A stretch of 61,503 nucleotides of DNA, counting the filler, from a candidate division TA06 bacterium SM23_40 (lineage in GTDB: Bacteria; LJUI01; SM1-40), in the NCBI GenBank assembly GCA_001303705.1. It is 5 parts of 5 records of this genome, joined end to end, with 100 filler letters (N's around TTAATTAATTAA, not from the genome) between each part and the next. Parts side by side here need not be neighbours in the genome. Positions count along the whole stretch, not along the records: positions 47,155 to 61,503 come from LJUI01000087.1; 4 more parts are not named here. One strand, given 5' to 3'. The notes under the pieces are model-generated. The model saw only the letters and a program-made list of their open reading frames with translations. It was not told the origin of the DNA and did not search any database. The position numbers and the translations under genes are program-made. Below, one piece after another: positions 7,046 through 58,164 of this stretch (within the stretch, counting starts at the first letter, position 1; every line of letters starts with the position of its first letter).

Positions 7046-9295
7046 ATGAGCTATCATCCGGGCGGCCATCGACTGAAGCATCTGCTCGCAGTGACCGGTT
7101 GTACAACAATCGCAGCGCTCGTGGCCATTCCCTGCTGGGCGGCAACCACGTCGCGATGGGAGGTCGGTTCCCACGATGCGCTGGCCAAGGGCACGCCGAC
7201 TAATGTTTCGATCACCGCAGACGGAAAGGCCGTTCTTGCCCCCGAGCTGAGCCTGTGGGCAGAGTCGGGCGAGCAATATATCTGGTCCCTCGCACGCGAT
7301 TCGAAGGGCGTTCTGTACGTGGGAACGGGGAATGAGGGCAAGGTATTCAAGGTGGCTCGATCCGGGTCGTGCGAGCTTCTCTTCGACTCCGACGAGATCG
7401 CTGTCACCAGCCTGGCTCTCGACCGTCAGGGCAACCTCTTCTGCGGAACGATGCCGGAAGGCCTCATCTACCGCATCACCAGAGATGGCAAAGCCTCGAT
7501 CTTCTGGGACCTTGAGGAGAAGTATGTCTGGGCTCTCGCATTCGATGACAGGGGATCTCTGTATGCCGGGACAGGGGATGAAGGGAGACTGTACCGCGTC
7601 TCACGTACCGGAGATGCCGAACCGGTCTTCGACTCCGACGACCCACACATCATGGCAGTCCTCGTCGATGAACAGGGGAGGCTCTTCGCCGGCACCGAGG
7701 GGAGCGGGCTGGTGGTCAGGATCCCCCGAGACGGGGATGCATTCGTCATGTACGATGCCTCCGAACCGGAGACACGCGCACTTGCCCTCAGTGAGGGGAC
7801 TCTGTACGTGGGGACGACCTCGGGGGCGCCGGTACCTTCCGCTCCTGCAGCGGCACCATCAGAAGTGCTGACCCCGACGCAGCCCGCTGCGTCTTCGGAC
7901 GGCGGAACGGGGACTGAGCCCCAGGCCGCCAGGCGCGAGCCAACACCGTTTGCCCCGATCACTCCCGCAGCCCCCCGGCCCGGGGTTGCAGGCGTTCTCT
8001 ATCGTATTTCGCCCGATGGAGCGGTACGGCGCCTGTGGACCTCACCCGATGTCCTCCTCTCCCTCGCCCTCGATCGCAACCGCCGCCTCGTCATCGGTAC
8101 GGGCGGAGAGGGTAGACTCTGGCGTCTCGACGATGATGACGAAGTCTCTCTGCTGGCGAAATGCGACGCACCGAACATCATCAGCCTTCTCTCTACATCT
8201 GGCGGAGACATATATATCGGCACCGGCGATGACGGCCAACTGTACCGGCTGGCCCCCGAGTACGCGGCGACCGGCACGCTGGAGTCCGAGGTGAAGGACT
8301 GTGGGTCAGTGGCAGAGTGGGGGGTGATCACCTGGGAAGCGCTCATCCCCTCGGGAACGAATGTGACCCTGGCTACGCGCACGGGCAACACAGAGAAGCC
8401 GGACGACAACTGGAGCGACTGGTCGGCCGAGCTCCGGACCCCGACGGGAAAGAGAGTCGCGAGCCCTCCCGCACGATTCCTCCAGTGGCGGGCCACGCTC
8501 ACTTCATCGGATGCGCGCAGCTCGCCGGCACTCGATCGGGTGGAGGTGGCGTACCTGCAGCAGAACCTGGCCCCACAGGTCACCTCTGTCGAGGTGACCG
8601 AGCCTGACAAAGCCGACGAGCAGACCGGCCCCGCAGCGGGGGCGGCGGCGAGGCCCGTTCCGGCCTCGATCTCCACCTCCCCTCTGCTCTCGCCCTCAGG
8701 TGCAGGCGGCCGTAATGAACGCACAGCGAGCACCCTCCCGACGGTTCAGAAGACGAGGGCCATAACCTGGCGCGCAGAAGATCCCAACGGCGACAAGCTC
8801 GCGTACGATGTCTACTTCAAGGGACTCGAAGAGAAGGAGTGGAAGCGTCTCGAGGAGGATTTCTCGGGCACGTCGCTCACGCTCGACCCGCACGCGTTTC
8901 CCGACGGCGAGTACCGCATCAAAGTCGTAGCCACGGACAGTCCGGACAATCCCCGGCCGCTCGCACTCGAAGGCCATCGGGTCTCCGACCCGTTCGCCAT
9001 CGACAATACACCGCCGACGATCGGCGGACTCGCGGTCTCCGGATCGACCGCGGGCCAGCAGAAGGCGAAGGCCGAGGCAAAGGACGCCATGAGCCGCATT
9101 CGCGGGGCGGAATACTCGTGCGATGCCGGCCCCTGGCGTGCGGTCTTCCCCGTTGACCACATATTCGATACTTCGAAAGAGCAGTTTGAGTTCGACCTCC
9201 CGGACCTCGAGCCCGGCGAACATACGCTCGTTCTCAGGGCGATCGATGGTACCGGAAATATCGGGGCATCAAAGACTGTCTTTCACACGAGGTAG
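7046..9295 (+). CDS. Secreted beta-propeller protein with C-terminal FN3/Ig-like domains
   Basis: Repeated IWSLARDSKGVLYVGTGNEGKVF-like blades; TRTGNTEKPDDNWSDWS; WRAEDPNGDKLAY; IDNTPP. Confidence 0.8.
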   Translation: MSYHPGGHRLKHLLAVTGCTTIAALVAIPCWAATTSRWEVGSHDALAKGTPTNVSITADGKAVLAPELSLWAESGEQYIWSLARDSKGVLYVGTGNEGKVFKVARSGSCELLFDSDEIAVTSLALDRQGNLFCGTMPEGLIYRITRDGKASIFWDLEEKYVWALAFDDRGSLYAGTGDEGRLYRVSRTGDAEPVFDSDDPHIMAVLVDEQGRLFAGTEGSGLVVRIPRDGDAFVMYDASEPETRALALSEGTLYVGTTSGAPVPSAPAAAPSEVLTPTQPAASSDGGTGTEPQAARREPTPFAPITPAAPRPGVAGVLYRISPDGAVRRLWTSPDVLLSLALDRNRRLVIGTGGEGRLWRLDDDDEVSLLAKCDAPNIISLLSTSGGDIYIGTGDDGQLYRLAPEYAATGTLESEVKDCGSVAEWGVITWEALIPSGTNVTLATRTGNTEKPDDNWSDWSAELRTPTGKRVASPPARFLQWRATLTSSDARSSPALDRVEVAYLQQNLAPQVTSVEVTEPDKADEQTGPAAGAAARPVPASISTSPLLSPSGAGGRNERTASTLPTVQKTRAITWRAEDPNGDKLAYDVYFKGLEEKEWKRLEEDFSGTSLTLDPHAFPDGEYRIKVVATDSPDNPRPLALEGHRVSDPFAIDNTPPTIGGLAVSGSTAGQQKAKAEAKDAMSRIRGAEYSCDAGPWRAVFPVDHIFDTSKEQFEFDLPDLEPGEHTLVLRAIDGTGNIGASKTVFHTR

Positions 9296-10644: not shown

Positions 10645-10744
10645 NNNNNNNNNNNNNNNNNNNNNNNNNNNNNNNNNNNNNNNNNNNNTTAATTAATTAA
10701 NNNNNNNNNNNNNNNNNNNNNNNNNNNNNNNNNNNNNNNNNNNN
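10645..10744. other. Artificial contig linker
   Basis: 44 N + TTAATTAATTAA + 44 N. Confidence 0.99.
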
Positions 10745-15378: not shown

Positions 15379-16194
15379 CTATTGCTCTCCCGGCGTGCTC
15401 TTTCGGCGCTGCTCCTCACCTTTGATGAGGTTCCAGAGTTGCTCCATCTCCTCGAGGGTGGCAGCTTCTGCGCTCGATCCCCGCTCTCTCAGAGACTCCT
15501 CGATCTGCTTAAAGCGCGCGATGAACTTGTCGGTGCTGCGTTTCAACGCATCTTCAGGATTGACGTTGAGGAGCCGGGCGAGGTTGACGATCGCGAACAG
15601 GAGGTCGCCGAGCTCTTCCCGGATAGCGATCCCCTCATTGCCCCGGCGCGCCGCCGACAGTTCCTGGAGTTCTTCCTCGACCTTCCTCATAACGTCTTGG
15701 GGGTCGTTCCAGTCGAAACCCACTCGCGATACCTTGTCCTGAATTCTGTGGGCTCGCAGCAGCGCTGACAGACCCTTCGGCACTCCATCGAGGAGAGATC
15801 CCGCCCGACCGTCGGGCGATTCCTGCCGTTTGATCTGCTCCCAATTGACCAGGACCTCGCGGGGCCCGGAGACGCGTTCTGCGCCGAAGACGTGCGGATG
15901 ACGCCGCCTCATCTTCTTCAAGTTGTCCCGCAGCACGTCGTCGATCGTGAATCGTCCCTCTTCCTTGGCGATCTGGGCGTGGAACAGTACCTGGAATAGA
16001 ACGTCGCCGAGCTCGTCCTTCAGGCGTTCGTCGCTCCCTTCCTCCAGTGCCTCGATGACCTCGTGAGCTTCCTCGAGGAGGTAGGGCTTGAGGGTCTCGT
16101 GAGTCTGCTCTCTGTCCCACGGACAACCGGTCTCGCCGCGCAGGCGGTCGACAAGATCCACCAGCTGCGAGAAGACGTCGTTCGTTCCACCCAT
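15379..16194 (-). CDS. mazG: Nucleoside triphosphate pyrophosphohydrolase MazG
   Basis: GCPWDREQTHETLKPYLLEEAHE, ELGDVL, RRHPHVF, VGFDW, EELGDLLF. Confidence 0.96.
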   Translation of the reverse strand: MGGTNDVFSQLVDLVDRLRGETGCPWDREQTHETLKPYLLEEAHEVIEALEEGSDERLKDELGDVLFQVLFHAQIAKEEGRFTIDDVLRDNLKKMRRRHPHVFGAERVSGPREVLVNWEQIKRQESPDGRAGSLLDGVPKGLSALLRAHRIQDKVSRVGFDWNDPQDVMRKVEEELQELSAARRGNEGIAIREELGDLLFAIVNLARLLNVNPEDALKRSTDKFIARFKQIEESLRERGSSAEAATLEEMEQLWNLIKGEEQRRKSTPGEQ

Positions 16195-19957: not shown

Positions 19958-21265
19958 ATGAAGATGTACAAAGCCGGGGCGTGGTGCGATTCTCCGGATA
20001 AGATGGAGGTAAGGAGTCCCTACTCCGGAGGAGTGATCGACTCCGTGCCGCGGGCGAGTCTGGCCGATCTGGAGGAGGCGATTTCGAGCGCCCGCGATGC
20101 AGCGGGGGAGATGTGCCGACTTCCAGCATACGAGCGCTCCCGAATACTGCGAACCGGCGCCGAGATGCTCGAGGCATCGGCGGAGCGGTTTGCCCAGACC
20201 CTCGCCTCCGAGGTGGGGAAGACGATTCGCGAGGCTCGCGGTGAGGTGAGCCGATCCGTCGAGACACTCCGGCTCTCCTCGGAGGAGGCGAAGAGGATAC
20301 ACGGCGAGACAGTGCCATTCGATGCCGGACCGGTCGCGGTCAACAAGGTCGGATTCTATATGAGGGTCCCGGTCGGGCTCGTCGCGGCGATCAGTCCGTT
20401 CAACTTCCCGCTGAACCTCGTTCTGCACAAGGTCGGACCGGCGATCGCGGCGGGGAACTCCGTGATTCTCAAGCCTGCCTCAGCAACACCGCTCGTCGCC
20501 CTGATGTTGACAGAACTCCTGCTCGAGGCCGGGCTGCCGCCGACGGCCATCAATGCGCTGACTGGGCCGGGCGGGGAGATCGGCGACGCGCTCGTCGCCG
20601 ACCCGCGTATCGATATGGTCACCTTCACCGGCAGTCTCGAGGTGGGGCGGCGGATCGCGGCCCGCCGCGGGCTCGGCAAGTTGACGATGGAGCTCGGGTC
20701 GAACTCTGCCTGTATCGTCATGCAAGGCGCGGATCTCGACCGGGCGGTCCCGAAGATCGTCAGGGGTGGGTACGCTCTCGCCGGGCAGGTCTGCATCTCT
20801 GTTCAGCGCGTCTATGTCCTCGACGCGATCTACGACCAGTTCCTCGAACGGTTGATACCCCAGGTGCGGAGTCTCAAAGTTGGTGATCCTCTCGACGAGA
20901 CTGTCGATATGGGGCCCATGGTCACTGAGGAGGCTGCCGTACGCGCTCTCGACTGGATTGCCGAGGCGGTCGATGCGGGCGCGACGGCGGTTGTGGGCGG
21001 CGGCCGCGCCCGTGCTCTCCTCGAGCCGACGGTTCTCACCGATGTATCGCCCGAAGCAAAGGTCTCGTGTGAGGAGGCGTTCGCGCCTATCCTCGTCGTC
21101 AACCGTGTCCATACTCTCGATGAGGCGATTGCAGGAGTCAATGACTCCAAGTACGGTCTCCAGGCGGGCATCTTCACCAACGATATCGGACAGGCGTTCG
21201 ACGCGGCCAGGCGGATCGAGACCGGCGGGGTGATGATGCGCGTCGTCTGCTTCGATCTCGGCTAG
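19958..21265 (+). CDS. Aldehyde dehydrogenase family protein with an apparent internal deletion near the C-terminus
   Basis: ISPFNFPLNL, KPAS, FTGS, ELGSN, GQVCIS, EEAFAP, YGLQAGIFT; the PYGG..SG.GREG segment is missing. Confidence 0.88.
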   Translation: MKMYKAGAWCDSPDKMEVRSPYSGGVIDSVPRASLADLEEAISSARDAAGEMCRLPAYERSRILRTGAEMLEASAERFAQTLASEVGKTIREARGEVSRSVETLRLSSEEAKRIHGETVPFDAGPVAVNKVGFYMRVPVGLVAAISPFNFPLNLVLHKVGPAIAAGNSVILKPASATPLVALMLTELLLEAGLPPTAINALTGPGGEIGDALVADPRIDMVTFTGSLEVGRRIAARRGLGKLTMELGSNSACIVMQGADLDRAVPKIVRGGYALAGQVCISVQRVYVLDAIYDQFLERLIPQVRSLKVGDPLDETVDMGPMVTEEAAVRALDWIAEAVDAGATAVVGGGRARALLEPTVLTDVSPEAKVSCEEAFAPILVVNRVHTLDEAIAGVNDSKYGLQAGIFTNDIGQAFDAARRIETGGVMMRVVCFDLG

Positions 21266-25021: not shown

Positions 25022-25121
25022 NNNNNNNNNNNNNNNNNNNNNNNNNNNNNNNNNNNNNNNNNNNNTTAATTAATTAANNNNNNNNNNNNNNNNNNNNNNN
25101 NNNNNNNNNNNNNNNNNNNNN
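25022..25121. other. Artificial contig linker
   Basis: N-run with TTAATTAATTAA. Confidence 0.99.
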
Positions 25122-35590: not shown

Positions 35591-35690
35591 NNNNNNNNNN
35601 NNNNNNNNNNNNNNNNNNNNNNNNNNNNNNNNNNTTAATTAATTAANNNNNNNNNNNNNNNNNNNNNNNNNNNNNNNNNNNNNNNNNNNN
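35591..35690. other. Artificial contig linker
   Basis: N-run with TTAATTAATTAA. Confidence 0.99.
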
Positions 35691-47054: not shown

Positions 47055-47154
47055 NNNNNNNNNNNNNNNNNNNNNNNNNNNNNNNNNNNNNNNNNNNNTT
47101 AATTAATTAANNNNNNNNNNNNNNNNNNNNNNNNNNNNNNNNNNNNNNNNNNNN
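47055..47154. other. Artificial contig linker
   Basis: N-run with TTAATTAATTAA. Confidence 0.99.
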
Positions 47155-47166
47155 ATATTCGGGTAG

Positions 47167-47379
47167 TCAGTCTGTTGTGTCACAGATTGCCCTCTCCTTT
47201 CTCGGCACCTTCGCCGACTCCACTTCCCGCCCAAGGGCGGCGGGAAGTAGGTTCGACGTTAGTCTTGACTTGCGTATAGCTTGCTCATGGTCAGTCTTCC
47301 TTGCTCCTTCGCGGGCCCGCATCCTGCGGTACAGGGCGCGGGCGGTTGTGGTCGCTAGTTCTTCGGTCTGAGTCGCCAT
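47167..47379 (-). CDS. Small hypothetical protein
   Basis: ATG at 47379 downstream of a near-consensus promoter; no recognisable motif. Confidence 0.4.
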   Translation of the reverse strand: MATQTEELATTTARALYRRMRAREGARKTDHEQAIRKSRLTSNLLPAALGREVESAKVPRKERAICDTTD

Positions 47380-47419
47380 GGGTCTCGCCTTCTTGCGTGG
47401 GTGCAATGTCTACAGCCAG

Positions 47420-47448
47420 ATGATAGCACCCCGCGGCAGACGTGTCAA
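47420..47448 (-). promoter_or_regulatory. Near-consensus sigma-70 promoter divergent from the late genes
   Basis: TTGACA-17 nt-TATCAT with extended TGn on the minus strand. Confidence 0.7.
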
Positions 47449-47770
47449 CAGGGGGGTGTGGACAAGGTCGAATTTTCTCCGTGCCAGCCCGAACGACCAA
47501 GCAAGACCTGTGGGGAAATCACCGTGACGAATGGGTCACACACACCCTTGTGATGCCTCAAAATTAGGCAGGCAGCTCGGTGTGAGCCGTGATGGGGGCC
47601 TACAAGCCAGCGACGAGCTCAACATTGATGGCTCGAGGTTGCGTTGGGCTGTTCGTCTCGTGACGCTGGGCGTCAGGTTGGGCGAGTTGGGGCAACGGCA
47701 CCCAGATACAGTCAAGGGTGAATGCAGATAAGTAAGTAATTCCGCGGGCTTACGTGATCGGCGGGTTTCT

Positions 47771-47798
47771 ATTTAACATAATCGATCTTATCGGACGT
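47771..47798 (-). promoter_or_regulatory. dif-like XerC/XerD recombination site
   Basis: Minus strand ACGTCCGATAA-GATCGA-TTATGTTAAAT: 11-6-11 layout, XerD arm identical to E. coli dif. Confidence 0.85.
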
Positions 47799-48619
47799 AC
47801 GTGCCGGTGTGTCACTTCCCCAGGGGGCGATTGGGCAATTGGGCGAATCGGCATACCCCCCCCCTCCCCCTGGGGTGGGGCAAGAGTCCCCTCTTCCCAC
47901 CGGAATTCCAAAAGCGTGATTCCGGCACGAAAAGGGGGTGGATTGGGGGTCTTATGGGGGGTTTTTGTGCCTGGTATTCCGGAGCTGGTCTGCGGGCAGA
48001 GGACTTCTTCCCCGCATTCCCCTGGGGGAAAATCAGCGCGCGCGGGCTAAGAAGCAGCCTCGCTACTGGGGTTTTGCCAGTCGCTCTAACGTCGCGCTGA
48101 GTGCTGCGGGTTCTTCCTCTACCCTGGCTGCGCAGGATGGGTTCCTGGGCAGCGCGCCGCGTCCGGGCGGTGTGTCCGGTCGGCGCTCCAGCGGGGGACT
48201 TTCGGCCCGTCGCTGGCCCGCGGGCAGCCGGGTGGCTTCAGCGTCCCGGCGTGTCTCTCGCATTTCTGCCGCTGAGCCGGCAGCGGAGCCGAGCATCGAG
48301 AGCTTCGGACTGCTCGAGCAGGGTTGCTCCTTCTCCCCCCTGGTTCCGGCGGGGGTTCCTGCGCCCTCGCGGTGGTTTTCCCCTGTCGTGCCAGGTGTGG
48401 AAGCGGCGTCCCGCGACAGGGGTTGGGGCTCATAGCCCCACCAGGCGATCTTCTGGATGAACTCGAGCAGATCCGGCGTTGTGTGTCGCTCTGCATAAGC
48501 TAGAAGCTCGTCCAGATAAGCCACGCACAGTCCAATACCATATTCTTGGTCTGTGGCAAGAAGCCCCTTTCTCTTGACTTTTGGGGCAAAGTTGGATACG
48601 GAGGGAGCAGAAGTCCCAC

Positions 48620-49423
48620 ATGGGGCATTTGGGGACCTTGGAGGGAAGGGCCACGGAGTCCACCAAGCCCACAGGCCGCAAGAGGCAGCCGACCACTCGA
48701 TTTGCCCGGGAGCGCGCGAGGAAGTATCTGGGCGCCAAGCGGGTCCGCGTAACGGCGGTAGAACGCGAAGCCTACGATCTTCGCGAGCAGGGTCTTACCT
48801 GGGCCGAGTGCGCAGCGCGTCTGGACAAGGATCAGCGCACGATCCAGCGCGCCTACCAGCGTGCGTGCGTCAAGATTCCGAAGGAAGGCGAGCTTCAGAT
48901 CCCGCCGCAGAGCATCATGGCGAGGGATCCGGAGAGATATGCGGAGCTGGTTGACGAGCTCACGCGACCGGACGACGCCGATCAGACGCTCGACGATATC
49001 GCCAAACGCATGAACCTTCCGCAGGAGACGGTCTACAACGTCGCCAAGCGTCTTCGGTCGATCTACTTCCCCACGAACGTCGAGGTGCGAAAGGTCAAGC
49101 TCGAGCGCCTGAAGGATCTCTGGGGCATGCGTGCCGAGGAGGCGCTTCTTGCCATCACGCCCGAGAAGCTGGAGAACGCAGGGCCACGAGATCTGGGAAT
49201 CATCGCCGGCATCGCGACCGAGAAGCTTCTGCTCCTGCGCGGACTTCCCACTCAGATCGTCCGCAACGAGGCCGACAGGGGCAAGATCGAGATTCTCGCC
49301 CAGGCCTTCATCAAGGAGGCCGAGCGGCGGGGCTATCGGTTCGATGCCGATACAGCAACCGGCCGCGTGGACCTAGGCTACGTCAGCCGGCCGAAGCAGA
49401 CGATTGACGTAGACCCGGGCTAG
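48620..49423 (+). CDS. Putative terminase small subunit / HTH DNA-binding protein
   Basis: Two HTH-like segments (GLTWAECAARL, TLDDIAKRMNL); KLENAGPRDLGIIAGIATEKLLLLRGLPT; directly upstream of TerL. Confidence 0.6.
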   Translation: MGHLGTLEGRATESTKPTGRKRQPTTRFARERARKYLGAKRVRVTAVEREAYDLREQGLTWAECAARLDKDQRTIQRAYQRACVKIPKEGELQIPPQSIMARDPERYAELVDELTRPDDADQTLDDIAKRMNLPQETVYNVAKRLRSIYFPTNVEVRKVKLERLKDLWGMRAEEALLAITPEKLENAGPRDLGIIAGIATEKLLLLRGLPTQIVRNEADRGKIEILAQAFIKEAERRGYRFDADTATGRVDLGYVSRPKQTIDVDPG

Positions 49424-49429
49424 GGAGCA

Positions 49430-51211
49430 ATGCTCGATAGGATCACGGAAGCCGGCTTCGATCTGGATTCGTTCGATCCGAGCGATCTGCAGAGCCTCGA
49501 TCGAGACCAGTTTGCGAAGACCGGAGCCGCGATTCTCGAGCTCTACCGGGCCGACCGTCAGGAGAACCAGCTTCGCTACTACAAGCCCGTGAGCCCTGCG
49601 GCGCGAAAGATTCACGAGGCGACCGAAACCATCATCGGCGTCGGGGGCGGCAACGGCAGCTCCAAAACCGAGACGTGTATGGTGGAGCTGCTCATTCTCT
49701 CCACGGGCATCATTCCGGACTCGCTGAACGACGGAACGATCGATTGGAAAGCGAAATTCCGCGGACCCAGAAAGCAGCGAATCGTCGTAGAATCGCTGAC
49801 GACAACGCTGCACACGATCATCCTTCCCAAGCTCAAGTGGTGGGTCTGGACGGGGCTAGGGGAGCCCGGAGGGCCGAAGGGGCACTGGGGCTGGCTGCCG
49901 AAATGGGCCTTGATCGATGGATCGTGGGACAAGAGCTGGAGCGAGAAGCTAAGGCTGCTGCGGTTTCTCTGCCGCAATCCGGACGATCCGGACGAAGTTC
50001 TGGGCGAGAGCACGATTCAGTTCATGGCCCACGGCCAGGAGCCGCAGGACTTCGCCTCCGGTGACTTCGACGAGGTGCTCCACGACGAGCCGCCGAGGCT
50101 CGCGATCTGGACCGAGAACGAGGCCCGGACCATGCGTGCGGACGGTCGCATGCTTCTTGCGATGACCTGGCCGGACGATCCTGCCATTCCGGTGGATTGG
50201 ATTCATGACAAGATCTATGCACACGGAAGGGAGCCTGACAAGCGGGAAGACACGATCTGGCTAGAGCTCTCGACATTCGACAATCCCCATCTGAATCAAG
50301 AATCAGTCAGATCGCAGGCCGAGCGCTGGGATTCGGTCACCCGGGCCGTGCGATTCGAGGGCAAGCCGATCCGGTTCAGCAACCGGGTGCATCCGCTGTT
50401 CACCGATCGCGACGCTTGGTGGTGCTTCTCGTGCAAGAAGGACAGCTTCGTCGAGCTGCGTGAAGGCAAGTATCGCTGTGTCGAGTGCAACGGAACCAAT
50501 GTCCAGCTCTACAATCACGTTGCCGCCTTCGACGTCGAGCCGACCTGGCCGACGGTCTATCTGCTGGACCCGCATCCGAGGAAGCCCCACATGATGCTCT
50601 GGGCACAGATTTCGCCGCAGGACGACGTATGGATTCAGAAGGAGCTCGAGCACGACGGAGGTTGCGAGGAGGTATCCGAGCGTGTTATGATCATCGAAGA
50701 GGAGTTCGGATTCCAGGTAGCCAAGCGCTGGATGGATCCCAACATGGGCGCTTCCCCGGCCAATGCCCAGAGACGCGAGCAGACCTGGCAGGACGAGTTC
50801 TCGGATTCTGGCCTTCGCTGCGATCTGGCGGATGATTTCATGGGCGGACGCAAGCGAATCAACACCTATCTCGAGCCAGATCCGCGGACCTATGACGTAA
50901 GGATCCATGTTCACAGGGATCGCTGCCCCACGGTTGTCTCGCAGATGCTTCGCTACTGCTGGGCCGATTACAAGCGAAGCACCGAACGGGATCAGCTTCA
51001 GAAGCCGAGGGACAAGTACGACGACTATCCGACGCTTTTGAAGTACCTGCTGAACTCGAATCCGGAGTTCACGGTTTTGCGAACAGGCTCGCCCATCATT
51101 TCGCGTAGACGCGCGAACATTGAGGCAAGAAAGAATCCCAACAAAAACAGAGGATCGGAATCATGGTCAAGAGAGCAATATTCACGGCGATATTCTACGG
51201 CGCATTGGTAG
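49430..51211 (+). CDS. terL: Terminase large subunit
   Basis: Walker A-like GGGNGSSKT, Walker B VLHDEPP, nuclease LLDPHPRKP, WMDP, KPRDKYDD. Confidence 0.88.
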   Translation: MLDRITEAGFDLDSFDPSDLQSLDRDQFAKTGAAILELYRADRQENQLRYYKPVSPAARKIHEATETIIGVGGGNGSSKTETCMVELLILSTGIIPDSLNDGTIDWKAKFRGPRKQRIVVESLTTTLHTIILPKLKWWVWTGLGEPGGPKGHWGWLPKWALIDGSWDKSWSEKLRLLRFLCRNPDDPDEVLGESTIQFMAHGQEPQDFASGDFDEVLHDEPPRLAIWTENEARTMRADGRMLLAMTWPDDPAIPVDWIHDKIYAHGREPDKREDTIWLELSTFDNPHLNQESVRSQAERWDSVTRAVRFEGKPIRFSNRVHPLFTDRDAWWCFSCKKDSFVELREGKYRCVECNGTNVQLYNHVAAFDVEPTWPTVYLLDPHPRKPHMMLWAQISPQDDVWIQKELEHDGGCEEVSERVMIIEEEFGFQVAKRWMDPNMGASPANAQRREQTWQDEFSDSGLRCDLADDFMGGRKRINTYLEPDPRTYDVRIHVHRDRCPTVVSQMLRYCWADYKRSTERDQLQKPRDKYDDYPTLLKYLLNSNPEFTVLRTGSPIISRRRANIEARKNPNKNRGSESWSREQYSRRYSTAHW

Positions 51212-51830: not shown

Positions 51831-52245
51831 GAAGAAAATAGGCTGCTGCACGCTATGTGGAAAGGAGGTCTTTGAAATCCTTTCTCGATATCCCCAAGAT
51901 CATCCGCTGGCCGGGGAGCCGCGAAAGCTGGGCAAACCGCTGGAAAGCGCTAGACGAGTTGATCTGGTTCTGATTGGTGGATCGACGGCATCGGTTACGG
52001 TCTGCAGCTCCTGCGAGGTAAGTGACAAGACGCTTCCTAGACTGTGGAAGATATGCTCGGATGCTAGCGGTCAAGAGATAACCGAGCCGGACAGGAGAGC
52101 CGCGAAGGGAATCAGGCAGTTGAAAGAAGAGCAGTATCATGCGGTCGTCGCTTCCGCGATTAGAATCGCTGCGGATCTTCCAATTTCCATTCTTTCAAAC
52201 AGTAGCTGGAAGGAAATCTATGACATCGCCGCCCGTACCGGATAG
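51817..52245 (+). CDS. Phage zinc-finger-like hypothetical protein
   Basis: CCTLC ... VCSSC; overlaps its neighbours in operon fashion. Confidence 0.7.
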   Translation: MRPNKKKIGCCTLCGKEVFEILSRYPQDHPLAGEPRKLGKPLESARRVDLVLIGGSTASVTVCSSCEVSDKTLPRLWKICSDASGQEITEPDRRAAKGIRQLKEEQYHAVVASAIRIAADLPISILSNSSWKEIYDIAARTG

Positions 52246-54625
52246 CCCGCCTAGTCGTAGGCGACGACCGAGGCTTCGCGAGATCAAAGGCGGGACGAGA
52301 AGAACCCGTCCGAGAAGGCTGCAGCTCAAGCCCAAGTACGAGACGATCGCGCAGCGGGTAATCGACTTCGCCAAGCGCGACCGCGAGAACCGACAGGATG
52401 AGCGCGACCGAAGGCTTCAGCGTTGCGCGAAGCTCAGGATGTGGTCGGAAGCGAGCGATCAGTTTCCCTGGCCGGACTCTTCGGACTTCGCGGTTCCGGA
52501 CATGGCAACCGCCTCCTTCCGTACCCAGGATACGCTTCACAATGCGGTCATGAGCCACAGGCCGCCGATGCTCGCGAAGTCTCACCACAAACACAACAAG
52601 GAGAAGGAGGAGACGATCAACGCGCTGCTTGATCATCAGTTCTTCGTTGAGCAGCCGGGGGAGCACATCGTCGAGGAGGCCGCTGACTGCTTCGTCAACG
52701 AAGGTGTGCTGACGCTCTTCGTTCCGTGGGTTCGCGAGCGAAGGCCGGTTAGCGATCTGCGATTCTTCCCCAAGATCCCGCGCGAGATGGAGCCAGACGA
52801 ATATTTCATGGCTCTTCTCGAGCAGGAGTTTCCGAGAACGTCCCATCGACGGCGTGGCGAGGAGGGCTGGGACTGGGAGATCTTCTCTGGAGACGATCGT
52901 TTCGATGTCTCCTTCTACACCGAGCCGAAGACAGAGAGCGTGAGAATGGTCATCGATCGTCAGACGACGATCTTTGATGGCCCACGGGTGATGGTCAAGG
53001 AGATGGACGATGTCCTCTGTCCACCTCGCTGCGCCAATCTCCAGCCCCCCGGACCGTCGAATCCCGAGGGTGCGCCCCACGTCATTCTAGTCGAAAGACC
53101 GACCTTGGATGAGCTTCGTAGGCTCCAGAAGGACGGCTTCTACGATCGCGTCAGCGCAGAGGAGCTGGAGAAGCTCAAAGGCGTGACTCCAGAGAGATCC
53201 GATGATGATATCAGGCAGCAGCAGAAGGACGCGATGACCGGGGAGAGGGATCAACCCGACACGCGAGTCAGCAGCCAAAATCGCTTTGAGATGTATGTCT
53301 GCTTCGATCGATTCGACGTCGATGGCGACGGGCTCGACGAGGATATGATTTGGTGGGTGCTGAAGGAGAAGAAGCTACTTCTGAAGGCTGCGATCATGAC
53401 CGAGATGTACCCGATGAGCCCGCCCTGCAGGCCATTTGCGGAGAGTACGTTCTTGCCTGCGAAGGGTCGCCGGGAGGGAATGAGTTTGCTCGAGATCATG
53501 GAATCGACTCATGATCTGATCAAGGAGCTTTGGGATCAAATGGTCGATGCCGGAACGATGGCAGTCTCCCCGCCTGGATTCTATCGACCGCAGTCGAACG
53601 TCAAGCCGGAAGTCCTCACCTACCTTCCTGGCGACCTCTACCCGCTGAATGATCCAAGCCGCGATGTCTCCTTCCCGCAGGTGGGAAACGCGAATCAGAC
53701 CTTCTCGTTGAATGCAATCACGATCGCCAGACAGCTGCAGAGCGATGTGATCATGATCAGCGATCTGAATCTCGGGAAGATTCCTGCCGGCAAGAGCTCG
53801 GCATTCAGGACGACTGGTACCACAGAGAACATACTGGCGCAGAGCGAGGCACGACCGGAACGGATCCTGCGCCGCTTCTTCATGGCCTTCAAGCAGGCTT
53901 GGTGGATCATGCACGAGCTAGATAAGCACTTGCTTCCGGACGAGAAGAAGTTCAGGATCGTGGGATATAAGCCGGCAGGTCAGGATCCATATCGCGAGAT
54001 CAAGAGCCGAAAGGATATCGAGGGATCCTACGAGTTCGAGTTTCAGGCGAACGTGGCGAACTCCAGCAAGATTGCGCTGCAACAGGCACTCATGCAGGCG
54101 TCCGCTGCCGTGCTCAATCCCGTTGCGATTCAGCTTGGCATAACGAGGCCCGAGGATGTCTATAACCTGATCTATGACATCCTGCGTGCCCTGGGTCTTG
54201 ATAGCGACCAGTATACGAGCCCGCCGATTCCGGAAGCGCATCTTCTGCGCATCTTTGCGGAGGAGGCCATTAGCGCCATCTTGCTGGAGACCGCGCCTTA
54301 TGGGGTTCCGGCCGAGCAGGGAGGCTGGAATGAGCATCTGCTGCGGTTGCGCGAATTCATGAATGACGATGTGCGCTTTGCGGTCGTGGATACGCCCAAG
54401 GCGCAGCAGCTCTTCAGAGCCTATATGGAGAAGGTTAGCGAGGAGGCTGCCCGCGAGCGCGAGAAGGCCCAGCTCGCCGCTGCAGCAGCAGGGACGAGTC
54501 CGGGTCCGCCTGGAAGGTCCGGTCCGCCCGCGGAGGCTCGCCCGAATCTAGCCACTCCGCGGGTTCAACCGGGCGAGCTGATCGAGGAGGCGCTGCCTAG
54601 CGCTGGCGGGGGTGCAAATCGCTGA
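52220..54625 (+). CDS. Portal protein (P22/podovirus-like size and position)
   Basis: 801 aa after TerL; FDVDGDGLDED, RPF..F.P..GR..G.S..E..ESTHD motif, Pro-rich tail. Confidence 0.8.
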   Translation: MTSPPVPDSPPSRRRRPRLREIKGGTRRTRPRRLQLKPKYETIAQRVIDFAKRDRENRQDERDRRLQRCAKLRMWSEASDQFPWPDSSDFAVPDMATASFRTQDTLHNAVMSHRPPMLAKSHHKHNKEKEETINALLDHQFFVEQPGEHIVEEAADCFVNEGVLTLFVPWVRERRPVSDLRFFPKIPREMEPDEYFMALLEQEFPRTSHRRRGEEGWDWEIFSGDDRFDVSFYTEPKTESVRMVIDRQTTIFDGPRVMVKEMDDVLCPPRCANLQPPGPSNPEGAPHVILVERPTLDELRRLQKDGFYDRVSAEELEKLKGVTPERSDDDIRQQQKDAMTGERDQPDTRVSSQNRFEMYVCFDRFDVDGDGLDEDMIWWVLKEKKLLLKAAIMTEMYPMSPPCRPFAESTFLPAKGRREGMSLLEIMESTHDLIKELWDQMVDAGTMAVSPPGFYRPQSNVKPEVLTYLPGDLYPLNDPSRDVSFPQVGNANQTFSLNAITIARQLQSDVIMISDLNLGKIPAGKSSAFRTTGTTENILAQSEARPERILRRFFMAFKQAWWIMHELDKHLLPDEKKFRIVGYKPAGQDPYREIKSRKDIEGSYEFEFQANVANSSKIALQQALMQASAAVLNPVAIQLGITRPEDVYNLIYDILRALGLDSDQYTSPPIPEAHLLRIFAEEAISAILLETAPYGVPAEQGGWNEHLLRLREFMNDDVRFAVVDTPKAQQLFRAYMEKVSEEAAREREKAQLAAAAAGTSPGPPGRSGPPAEARPNLATPRVQPGELIEEALPSAGGGANR

Positions 54626-57350: not shown

Positions 57351-58164
57351 TCTCTATGGCACTCCCGAGAAGAGCACCAGAGACATCATGAAGTGGAGTG
57401 GAGTCGGCACGTTGCCAGACTTCAACGAGTTTACCGGCTTGATCGAGTACCAGAGCCAGAGCCAAGGCTACGATACGACGGCGACTCACATCGAGTTTGC
57501 GAATGGATGCCAGGTGGAGCGGAAGCTCTTTGATGACGATCAGTACAACGTCTTCAATCAGCGACCGGCTGCGCTCGGAGCATCCGCAGCGAGGACCAGG
57601 GAGAAGCACGCGGCCAGGCTACTGAATATGGCGTTCAGCAACGATACGTACTTCTACAACAACACGGAAGGCGTGGCGCTGTGTAGCAATAGCCATACGA
57701 CCACATCGGGTGCGTCAACTGCGAGCGGATTCGACAACCTCGGGACCGCGTCCATGACAGCGGTCGCGGTTGCTACAGGCCGAATCCAGATGGTCGGATT
57801 CCGCGGCGATCAGGCCGAGCGGATCAGCGTGATTCCGAATCAGCTCTGGTATCCGCCGGATCTCTATGAGAAAGCCTACGAGATCATCAACGCTTCTGGC
57901 AAGGTAGATACTGCGCTCAATAACCCGAACGTTCACGAGGGCAAGTATACCGGACACGAATGGAACTTCCTTACCGACTCGAACAACTGGTTCATGATCG
58001 ATTCTCGTACATCAGCCAGGATGTTCCACTGGATCGATCGAATTGCACTCGAGTTCGGGATGATCGAGGATTTCGACACGCTGATTGCGAAGTTCAGGGC
58101 ATACATGCGATACAGCATCGCCTGGACGGACTGGCGCTGCATCTGCGGATTCCAGGTTTCGTAG
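57241..58164 (+). CDS. Major capsid protein, Mu gpT-like (frame open from 57241; first ATG at 57388)
   Basis: FGDILAPDFEEIFDEEY, RKLFDDDQY, LGASAARTRE..A..L..AF, EGVALCSNSH, P..LWYPPDL, LTDSNNWFMID, RYSIAWTDWR. Confidence 0.85.
   Translation, partial: SRTIIFSAPARFGDILAPDFEEIFDEEYAQHPSKKDDLYGTPEKSTRDIMKWSGVGTLPDFNEFTGLIEYQSQSQGYDTTATHIEFANGCQVERKLFDDDQYNVFNQRPAALGASAARTREKHAARLLNMAFSNDTYFYNNTEGVALCSNSHTTTSGASTASGFDNLGTASMTAVAVATGRIQMVGFRGDQAERISVIPNQLWYPPDLYEKAYEIINASGKVDTALNNPNVHEGKYTGHEWNFLTDSNNWFMIDSRTSARMFHWIDRIALEFGMIEDFDTLIAKFRAYMRYSIAWTDWRCICGFQVS

Follow-up and report, generated by a model that had tools for sequence, protein, structure and literature searches.

The stretch of DNA analyzed here (the window, 61,503 nucleotides) comes from the assembly of candidate division TA06 bacterium SM23_40 (GCA_001303705.1) and consists of five contigs of a bin, joined by four N44-TTAATTAATTAA-N44 linkers. 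Its last contig (47155-61503, 14,349 nt; LJUI01000087.1) is identical to a virus record classed as linear and 29% complete (G001), and 617 nt inside it lies a 28-bp sequence that resembles dif, the chromosomal site of XerC/XerD (XerCD) recombination. The plus strand of this site reads ATTTAACATAATCGATCTTATCGGACGT and the minus strand ACGTCCGATAA-GATCGA-TTATGTTAAAT, that is, an XerC-type arm, a 6-bp central region and an XerD-type arm (Table 1). Approximately 1.4 kb around the site is without conserved coding sequence, and the local GC content of 44-46% compares with 58% for the phage contig. To the right, an open reading frame (ORF) for a small-terminase-like (TerS-like) protein is followed by the genes for the large terminase (TerL), the portal and the major capsid protein, which bears out the placement upstream of the terminase genes of a tailed phage made in an earlier note on this DNA. 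The identity of TerL was confirmed with tblastn, which matched it to annotated terminases of phages at 22-23% identity (E 2e-15); these were also its best matches, and no closely related isolate phage was found by TerL. A homolog of the TerS-like ORF stands immediately upstream of TerL in all five viral relatives. To the left of the site, a sigma-70-like promoter match points leftward, away from the late genes, so that the site sits in a divergent non-coding region. Searches for tRNAs and against Rfam gave no match in the window.

The window site has the full 11-6-11 architecture of a Xer site, including the inner dyad ATAA/TTAT of the dif-type core, and the 28-mer occurs once in the whole window. 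A search with the core ATAA-N6-TTATGTTAAAT, allowing up to three mismatches, returned one match, this one and without a mismatch, against 0.13 expected; at least one match appeared in 13 of 100 shuffles. When compared with E. coli dif as given in the table of PMC2410131 (GGTGCGCATAA-TGTATA-TTATGTTAAAT), the window XerD arm agrees in 11 of 11 letters and the XerC arm in 5 of 11 (C plus ATAA). The minus-strand 28-mer of the earlier note, with its complete XerD arm and its inner ATAA, was therefore confirmed letter for letter, while the extent of the XerC arm had been understated, for the whole of ACGTCCGATAA is native to other bacteria. We scanned one genome per species with the pattern TCCGATAA-N6-TTATGTTAAAT and obtained at least 120 sites, mostly from Sphingomonadales, Acidobacteriota, Planctomycetota and Nitrospirota, with some from Firmicutes and Bacteroidota. 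Since 16 of the 120 sites listed carry exactly ACGTCCGATAA (with centers such as TATATA, TGTATA, TATTTA and TGTCTG), both window arms equal native dif-type arms in all 22 positions. The closest full site among the matches listed, ACGTCCGATAA-GATATA-TTATGTTAAAT in a metagenome-assembled genome (MAG) of Nitrospirota (L184), is identical in 26 of 28 letters. One protein of the bin, compared with ten genomes whose dif arms match, reached at best 37-41% identity, too little to place the bin. Only the center GATCGA looks unlike the chromosomal dif centers found, the arms being those of native dif sites in several phyla. A chromosomal dif is a single site at the terminus; this one is on a 14.3-kb phage contig. 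Judged by its letters, it is a genuine Xer-type site, and one that is not due to chance, because the same place is occupied in relatives and the arms follow the dif of the host, as described below. A single-strand DNA fold of the region, of the kind described for the folded attP of CTXphi, was no better than those of shuffles (z = 0.82).

To see how widely the site recurs, we collected relatives of the window TerL (47-55% identity) from 5 viral loci, 15 MAG loci and the best 80 of 204 metagenome loci, and searched them under a strict rule by which mismatches in the XerD arm and in the inner ATAA together do not exceed two. The 99 loci, comprising 871 kb, hold 16 strict sites, whereas reversing the sequences left 2; upstream of TerL lie 15 of these 16 sites. 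Particularly, among the 50 unique relatives with at least 1.8 kb of upstream sequence, 11 have a site within 2.5 kb upstream of TerL (about 10 of them independent, as L235 and L236 are near-duplicates), while the controls gave none in an equal-sized downstream region and one in reversed sequence. The site is thus not absent from related phages, a case for which the earlier note had allowed. Two complete relatives have a perfect core at 7-11 kb upstream of TerL: GCTGCGTATAA-TAGTTA-TTATGTTAAAT in G003 (96% complete) and ACTGCGCATAA-CCGTTA-TTATGTTAAAT in G010:C18, a closed phage circle of 47,051 nt with a 141-nt end overlap. The centers in the window and its relatives all differ (GATCGA, TTAGCA, TATGTA, GAATTG, TAATCA, TGGGTA, CATGGA, CCGTTA, TAGTTA, TAGGTA, CATGCA, TCAACA, CGTTCA, and TGCATA); kept arms around a freely varying center are what one would expect if a recombinase acts on two arms and joins the site to another copy of itself. 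The site can face either way with respect to TerL, with nine independent cases on the minus and five on the plus strand. On the far side of the site we found GcrA, a primase-helicase and DUF1376 in L010, and a DnaB-like helicase, DUF1376 and ArdC in L280, while the site of G010:C18 is embedded in early genes, among them those for RecT, an exonuclease and a replication initiator. Recombinases of the tyrosine or serine type were not detected on the window contig, which is 29% complete, in G003, G004-G006 or G010:C18, or on the L028 and L031 contigs.

Variants of the site were also seen in some of these phages. At the equivalent position, L009 (~7541-7570), L202 (~7450), L261/L267 and L244 (56-83) have one-armed sites in which a good XerC arm (e.g., ...CGCATAA) and a center are followed by a degenerate XerD arm; the XerC arm of L244 is exactly ACGTCCGATAA. 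In L235/L236 and L026, a second, weaker dif-like site or half site lies in the same orientation 0.25-1.2 kb from the main one (at -2153 and -953 from TerL in the former, and at ~700 and 957-984 in the latter).

These relatives bear on the possibility that the window site is a host dif or a junction of prophage and host on a chimeric or integrated contig; the earlier note had raised an att junction as an alternative. Only 617 nt separate the site from the end of the contig, and those 617 nt have no detectable homolog in the relatives. However, the apparent border with bacterial genes (HSP20, glycosyltransferases, an ABC transporter and others, to the left of 47055) is an N linker. As the window joins separate contigs, features that seem to cross the linkers are artifacts; the bacterial genes have no physical linkage with the site, and a junction of host and phage DNA cannot be seen. 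Moreover, phage genes flank the site on both sides in the relatives, with replication genes on the far side of the equivalent site; G010:C18 contains the site within a closed 47-kb phage circle; and the GATCGA center is unlike the chromosomal dif centers found. We therefore regard a junction as scarcely credible. Support from reads was sought in four runs through Logan assembled contigs (~5x word depth). Contigs in X1 (47226-47884) and X2 (47319-47942) bridge the site with the window flanks on both sides, and the assembled contigs have no joint or loose end at 47771-47798; loose ends occur at 47298, 47473, 47980, and 48030. Because such contigs drop rare forms, the absence of joints at the site says nothing on integration or circular junctions.

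The site is not confined to the TerL family of the window. A scan of IMG/VR with GATAA-N6-TTATGTTAAAT matched at least 116 contigs, a count that is not a measure of enrichment, and of the 80 that we examined, 47 matched in intergenic sequence and 33 in long ORFs, the latter probably by chance. From the 47 intergenic loci, 31 were chosen by eye for a dif-like XerC arm, and 52 proteins from flanking ORFs were run against Pfam; some of the chosen contigs are near-identical to each other. The nearest ORF encodes a small or large terminase in 12 of the 31 chosen loci, and others are next to holin or endolysin, portal or Microviridae capsid genes (Table 1). The capsid loci, mostly with the canonical TGTATA center, are as expected for known gokushoviruses among the integrative mobile elements that exploit Xer (IMEXs). 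Three of the terminase loci (L292, L330, and L355) have the exact window XerC arm and the same geometry, their site being on the opposite strand to terS and approximately 0.3 kb upstream of it, although their TerS is from a different family. With one TerL as query, tblastn located a terminase no more than 2 kb away from the site in another six loci. The number of sites per genome was one in each of five records, whereas G028 gave two matches, one with a mismatch.

If the phages used the site to enter the chromosome at dif, integrated prophages should show it at their borders. In all five integrated prophages that carry the site (the phage of the window is not among them) it is internal, with att or an integrase elsewhere, and none of the five is bracketed by dif-like sites at a host dif. 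One of them, the G008:C49 relative, sits on a 290-kb MAG contig whose phage genes end at 27.3 kb. At this right end, directly after the tail-fiber genes, is a partial tRNA-Pro 3′ end (G008:C49 27440-27491; L074 7440-7491), of which a 28-nt fragment is one letter off the complete tRNA-Pro 3′ end elsewhere in the same MAG; an Rfam search of the junction did not detect the partial tRNA, which was identified by its near-identity to the complete one. The dif-like site, TATGCGTGGAA-CATGGA-TTATGTTAAAT, is 23 kb from the tRNA-Pro end and 0.9 kb upstream of TerL. The best dif candidate of the MAG, TATGCGTATAA-TGTATA-TTATGTTAAAT, shares with it the outer XerC arm and the XerD arm, but only 2 of 6 letters of the center. 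In the 12 IMG/VR records that we examined, the proviruses G028 and G029, as well as G031 (classed linear), contain the site in their middle and an integrase at one of their ends.

A second known host is E. coli, of which four phage records match the region of L331. In one of them, the temperate myovirus ON470582.1, the site at 15497-15524 (L398 4022-4049) is GGTTCCTATAA-CGTACA-TTATGTTAAAT and occupies the non-coding gap between the antiterminator gene Q and the holin gene S, which is followed by R, Rz, terS, and terL. This E. coli version belongs to a phage of the vB_EcoM-689R2 type, and it is also present in L400 at ~20143-20170. Against E. coli dif as tabulated in the source cited above, the XerD arm agrees in 11 of 11 letters, the XerC arm in 8 of 11 and the center in 4 of 6. 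The 301 nt around this site are present in 138 of 5426 complete E. coli genomes, always in the chromosome, once per genome and with no annotation under them; in one complete chromosome, the prophage integrase abuts yfhL at a distance of ~16 kb. In phages of known host, the arms track the host dif while the centers differ.

These results speak against integration at dif as the general role of the site, the first of the two uses that had been suggested for it: all 5 of the 5 integrated prophages have it internally, and the center matches that of the host in only 2 of 6 (G008) and 4 of 6 (E. coli) letters. A narrower version, in which the window phage and other integrase-less relatives integrate at the host dif by XerCD through an IMEX-type attP, deserves separate consideration. 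The two window arms are those of native dif sites, the window contig, G003 and G010:C18 yielded no recombinase of the tyrosine or serine type, and non-tailed phages of several kinds (inoviruses, double-jelly-roll [DJR] phages and gokushoviruses) are listed as IMEXs in PMC12715192. A review describes the attP of VGJphi as having a center homologous to host dif on the XerC side only (PMC5357621); some dif centers start with GAT (GATATA in L184), so GATCGA would match on just that side. A VGJphi-like attP may still apply to the window phage in particular, of which the contig covers just 29%, but by the same token an integrase may lie off the contig. Furthermore, no integrated member of the set is flanked by dif-like sites, and the centers are poorly homologous to the host dif in both pairs with a known host. 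On balance we find this explanation rather unlikely.

The position of the site at the head of late genes raises two further explanations. In the window, a C-rich/G-rich element (TGGGCGAATCGGCATACCCCCC...GGGG...GAGTCCCC) lies between the site and terS, and TerL relatives have a version of it (GGCRCACCCCC...GGG...GGGTCCC) 30-330 nt from the dif-like site and always on the terS side. Its form TGGGCGAWT.GGCRCACCCCCC...GGGG...GGGTCCC stands upstream of terS in L009 (7692), L010 (6985), L031 (3822), L280 (9210) and others. In some phages the element is on the XerC side of the site and in others on the XerD side. No conserved RNA structure was predicted in it (0 pairs), and it may serve in packaging, as a pac/cos signal, or in the control of the late operon. 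The dif-like sequence itself could then be a non-Xer A/T-rich packaging element (a cos/pac accessory or the target of a bending protein) or a promoter element that happens to resemble dif. It does occupy non-coding DNA of the kind that usually harbors pac/cos and the late promoters, adjoins the conserved C-rich element and is often beside terS. Nevertheless, such an element would leave unexplained the host-dif arms, their change with host lineage and the variable center at fixed spacing, and a simple scan gave no promoter match at the site itself; we think this explanation highly improbable. Alternatively, XerCD could bind the site as an operator, and not as a recombination site, and thereby tie the expression of late or packaging genes to the condition of the host. 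Its consistent placement in late-operon leaders would suit such a role: upstream of terS in the window family, in the Q-holin gap in E. coli, and beside holin or endolysin genes in L336, L357, and L296. In P. aeruginosa, as described in PMC8609362, the phage-tail-like pyocin genes are induced without a need for RecA when XerC is lost, and more strongly so than with a catalytically dead XerC, although the link to our phages is only an analogy. However, the site can face either way with respect to the late genes, and an operator would not need two complete arms kept at exact 6-bp spacing, which makes the operator, in our opinion, quite improbable.

Two other genomes are informative about what the sites may do. 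G032 is a myovirus phage-plasmid of 47,026 nt (127-nt end overlap, rated 100% complete) that encodes ParA, an IncFII-family RepA, a CI-like repressor and HicB, and in whose complete sequence we found no integrase or recombinase of its own. Its psi-like site, GGTGCCGATAA-GATCCA-TTATGTTAAAT, adjoins repA. G032, unrelated to the phage family of the window, is the only carrier in which we found plasmid-maintenance (rep/par) genes. In G023 (L397 8435-15233), a tailed-phage TerL and a T7-type portal are followed by the site ACGTCCGATAA-TAAGGA-TTATGTTAAAT, then by a complete gokushovirus of ~5.1 kb with lower GC content (capsid F, Rep, and scaffold), and finally by a second direct site, CCGTCTTATAG-TTGATA-TTATGTTAAAA; the gokushovirus is immediately upstream of a podovirus-like phage TerL. 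Either a microvirus integrated by Xer into the site of a tailed phage, or both stand in an array at a host dif. The arrangement is a hint that the sites may work as Xer substrates in vivo.

Considering this evidence, we see about even chances that the site serves recombination of phage with phage by the host XerCD, be it for multimer resolution or for circularization, and is not an attP. What we observed is the Xer architecture, its recurrence, its position, arms that follow the host, divergent centers and an internal position in integrated prophages; binding and catalysis by XerC and XerD, activation by FtsK or a phage factor, and which outcome matters we infer from sequence. In the proposed course of events, XerC would bind ACGTCCGATAA and XerD TTATGTTAAAT on the phage chromosome in the cell. 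Two copies of the phage site, on a dimer, on sister circles or at the two redundant ends of an injected genome, would then pair, and strand exchange across the 6-bp center would give circles of one genome each, while phage and host terminus would stay unfused. Strand exchange requires matching centers, as stated in a review (PMC5357621), and recombination would be confined to phage with phage because GATCGA is the same between phage copies, unlike the A/T-only center of a host dif. One possible outcome is multimer resolution, as at cer and psi, which would be directly plausible for G032. The other is closure of terminally redundant DNA after injection, as in P1 with lox and Cre. Frequent neighbors of the site are small terminases like P22 gp3, Sf6 and Terminase_2; we take these to belong to headful packagers, and they make circularization attractive. 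On a larger scale, many unrelated tailed-phage lineages might keep a mimic of host dif beside their packaging or late genes, with XerCD acting as a borrowed Cre/lox that closes or monomerizes the chromosome and, as a side effect, with tailed phages becoming landing pads for Xer-exploiting microviruses. We advance this generalization tentatively and consider it possible, if somewhat doubtful.

Several points weigh against recombination of phage with phage. Under the strict rule, 39 of the 50 TerL relatives have no recognizable site, so that either the site is not essential to the clade or the E. coli-type pattern misses the versions adapted to other hosts. Phages that package from concatemers gain nothing obvious from multimer resolution, and circularization would require the site to be inside the terminal redundancy. 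Orientation is not fixed with respect to TerL or to the C-rich element, which argues against a fixed accessory region of the cer/psi kind. Moreover, since many phages have the site where the late operon begins, its role could be in regulation or packaging. Finally, the need of a plasmid prophage for dimer resolution, the second use suggested in the earlier note, is not shown for the TerL family of the window: the two complete relatives, G003 and G010:C18, have no partition genes, and no relative of TerL was found among 72,556 plasmids. This suggestion retains a parallel in G032 but has nothing of the kind in the closer family.

Sites of similar design are known from other replicons. Like ColE1 cer and pSC101 psi, the phage sites have Xer arms around a non-dif center on a mobile replicon, and those plasmid sites recombine with their own copy by host XerCD. 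The psi center, GATCC(A), of which PMC2410131 prints GATCC, is close to the GATCGA of the window and equal to the GATCCA of G032. The XerD arm of cer, TTATGGTAAAT, is that of L010 and L031, while the cer XerC arm ends in ...ACAA, as far as the sequences in that source go. According to a review, cer and psi depend on accessory DNA of ~180-190 bp that adjoins the XerC side and is bound by PepA, ArgR or ArcA (PMC5357621). In contrast, we recognized no accessory region next to the phage sites, whose neighboring conserved element can be on either side, and their carrier is a tailed phage and not a plasmid, with no TerL match in the plasmid records. The loxP site of P1, close to the start of packaging, is used by Cre to resolve dimers of the plasmid prophage and to circularize terminally redundant DNA, and not for integration. 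The resemblance lies in a recombination site on a tailed phage, near the packaging genes and with a proposed use on the phage's own DNA; the difference is that P1 encodes its recombinase beside the site, whereas none was found on the window contig, and the host dif arms are copied so that XerCD would act instead. The attP of IMEXs (CTXphi, VGJphi, TLCphi, gokushoviruses, and DJR vibriophages) are likewise dif-like sites on phage genomes, and full-length as well as one-armed versions occur in both sets (those described in PMC12715192 and, here, L009, L202, L244, and L261). IMEX copies, however, integrate at the host dif, are flanked by dif-like sites and do without integrases, while our carriers are tailed phages with double-stranded DNA, the site is internal in 5 of 5 and several have their own integrase. 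The pdif sites of Acinetobacter are also numerous, have variable centers and occur on mobile DNA away from the chromosome terminus, but pdif pairs bracket gene modules, whereas usually a single site is present per phage genome here.

Exploitation of Xer has so far been described for plasmids, islands and non-tailed phages, with inoviruses, gokushoviruses and DJR phages treated in PMC12715192 and islands in PMC5357621. Some plasmid prophages encode Xer-like recombinases of their own, as noted in PMC8026635. Our search of the literature, which did not extend to subscription journals or supplements, found no report of tailed phages with dif-like sites beside their terminase or late genes. If tailed phages do routinely carry mimics of host dif, XerCD would be a host factor for a large class of phages, in a general and so far unrecognized host-dependent step of tailed-phage replication. 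Prophage annotation would gain a cis-element that is easily scanned and whose arms report the host lineage, and bacterial chromosomes would hold extra, center-incompatible dif-like sites inside prophages, such as the unannotated E. coli version in 138 of 5426 genomes. As this version is in phages recorded complete with E. coli as host, the idea is directly testable by K-12 genetics.

Table 1. Features of the window and nearest features of dif-like sites in other phage records.
Feature	Location	Strand	Remarks
dif-like Xer site, 28 bp	47771..47798	-	arms identical to native dif arms
XerC-type arm ACGTCCGATAA	47788-47798	-	part of dif-like site
Central region GATCGA, 6 bp	47782-47787	-	part of dif-like site
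XerD-type arm TTATGTTAAAT	47771-47781	-	part of dif-like site
C-rich/G-rich element	47840..47892	+	41 nt from XerC-arm end of site
Sigma-70-like promoter match TTGACA-17-TATCAT with TG	47420..47448	-	consensus match only; 1 found vs 0.3 expected
TerS-like HTH protein	48581..49423	+	Pfam Sigma70_r4_2/HTH; first conserved packaging/structural gene
Large terminase TerL	49430..51211	+	relatives 47-55% identical in viral, MAG and metagenome contigs
Portal protein, SU10-type	52139..54625	+	Pfam PF23899 9e-28; PHROG 1216
Major capsid protein	57388..58164	+	Pfam Phage_capsid_4 / Mu gpT-like; PHROG 371
Assembly linkers N44-TTAATTAATTAA-N44	10645-10744, 25022-25121, 35591-35690, 47055-47154	.	artifact, not biology
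GP3_package nearest ORF	L292, L330, L355		Pfam
Terminase_2 nearest ORF	L306, L319		Pfam
Sf6_terminase nearest ORF	L305, L333, L334, L338, L345		Pfam
Terminase_6N nearest ORF	L290, L343		Pfam
Holin or endolysin nearest ORF, 3 loci	L336, L357, L296		Pfam
P22-type portal nearest ORF	1 locus		Pfam
Microviridae capsid nearest ORF	5 loci		Pfam; mostly canonical TGTATA centers
G032 psi-like site with repA neighborhood	L401 28-55; L403 5407-6237; L401 6496-7260		

Two minor observations concern the window sequence and its center. In the poly-C run at 47856, all four runs have one C fewer than the window, which may reflect variation in homopolymer length or an assembly error. A site of Parasphingorhabdus marina (L004 1996-2023; L015, G002:C2 ~1573400) has 23 letters in common with that of the window, including the GATCGA center. 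We dropped common descent as an explanation of this match, as the flanks differ and the shared center can be chance, given that the collection probably holds thousands of CGATAA-N6-TTATGTTAAAT sites. The P. marina site lies at the left edge of a prophage-like island with a ParB-methylase, DUF5681, TerL and a large serine recombinase, and is distinct from the likely chromosomal dif of this species, AAGGTTGATAA-TATATA-TTATGTTAAAT, which is on another contig.

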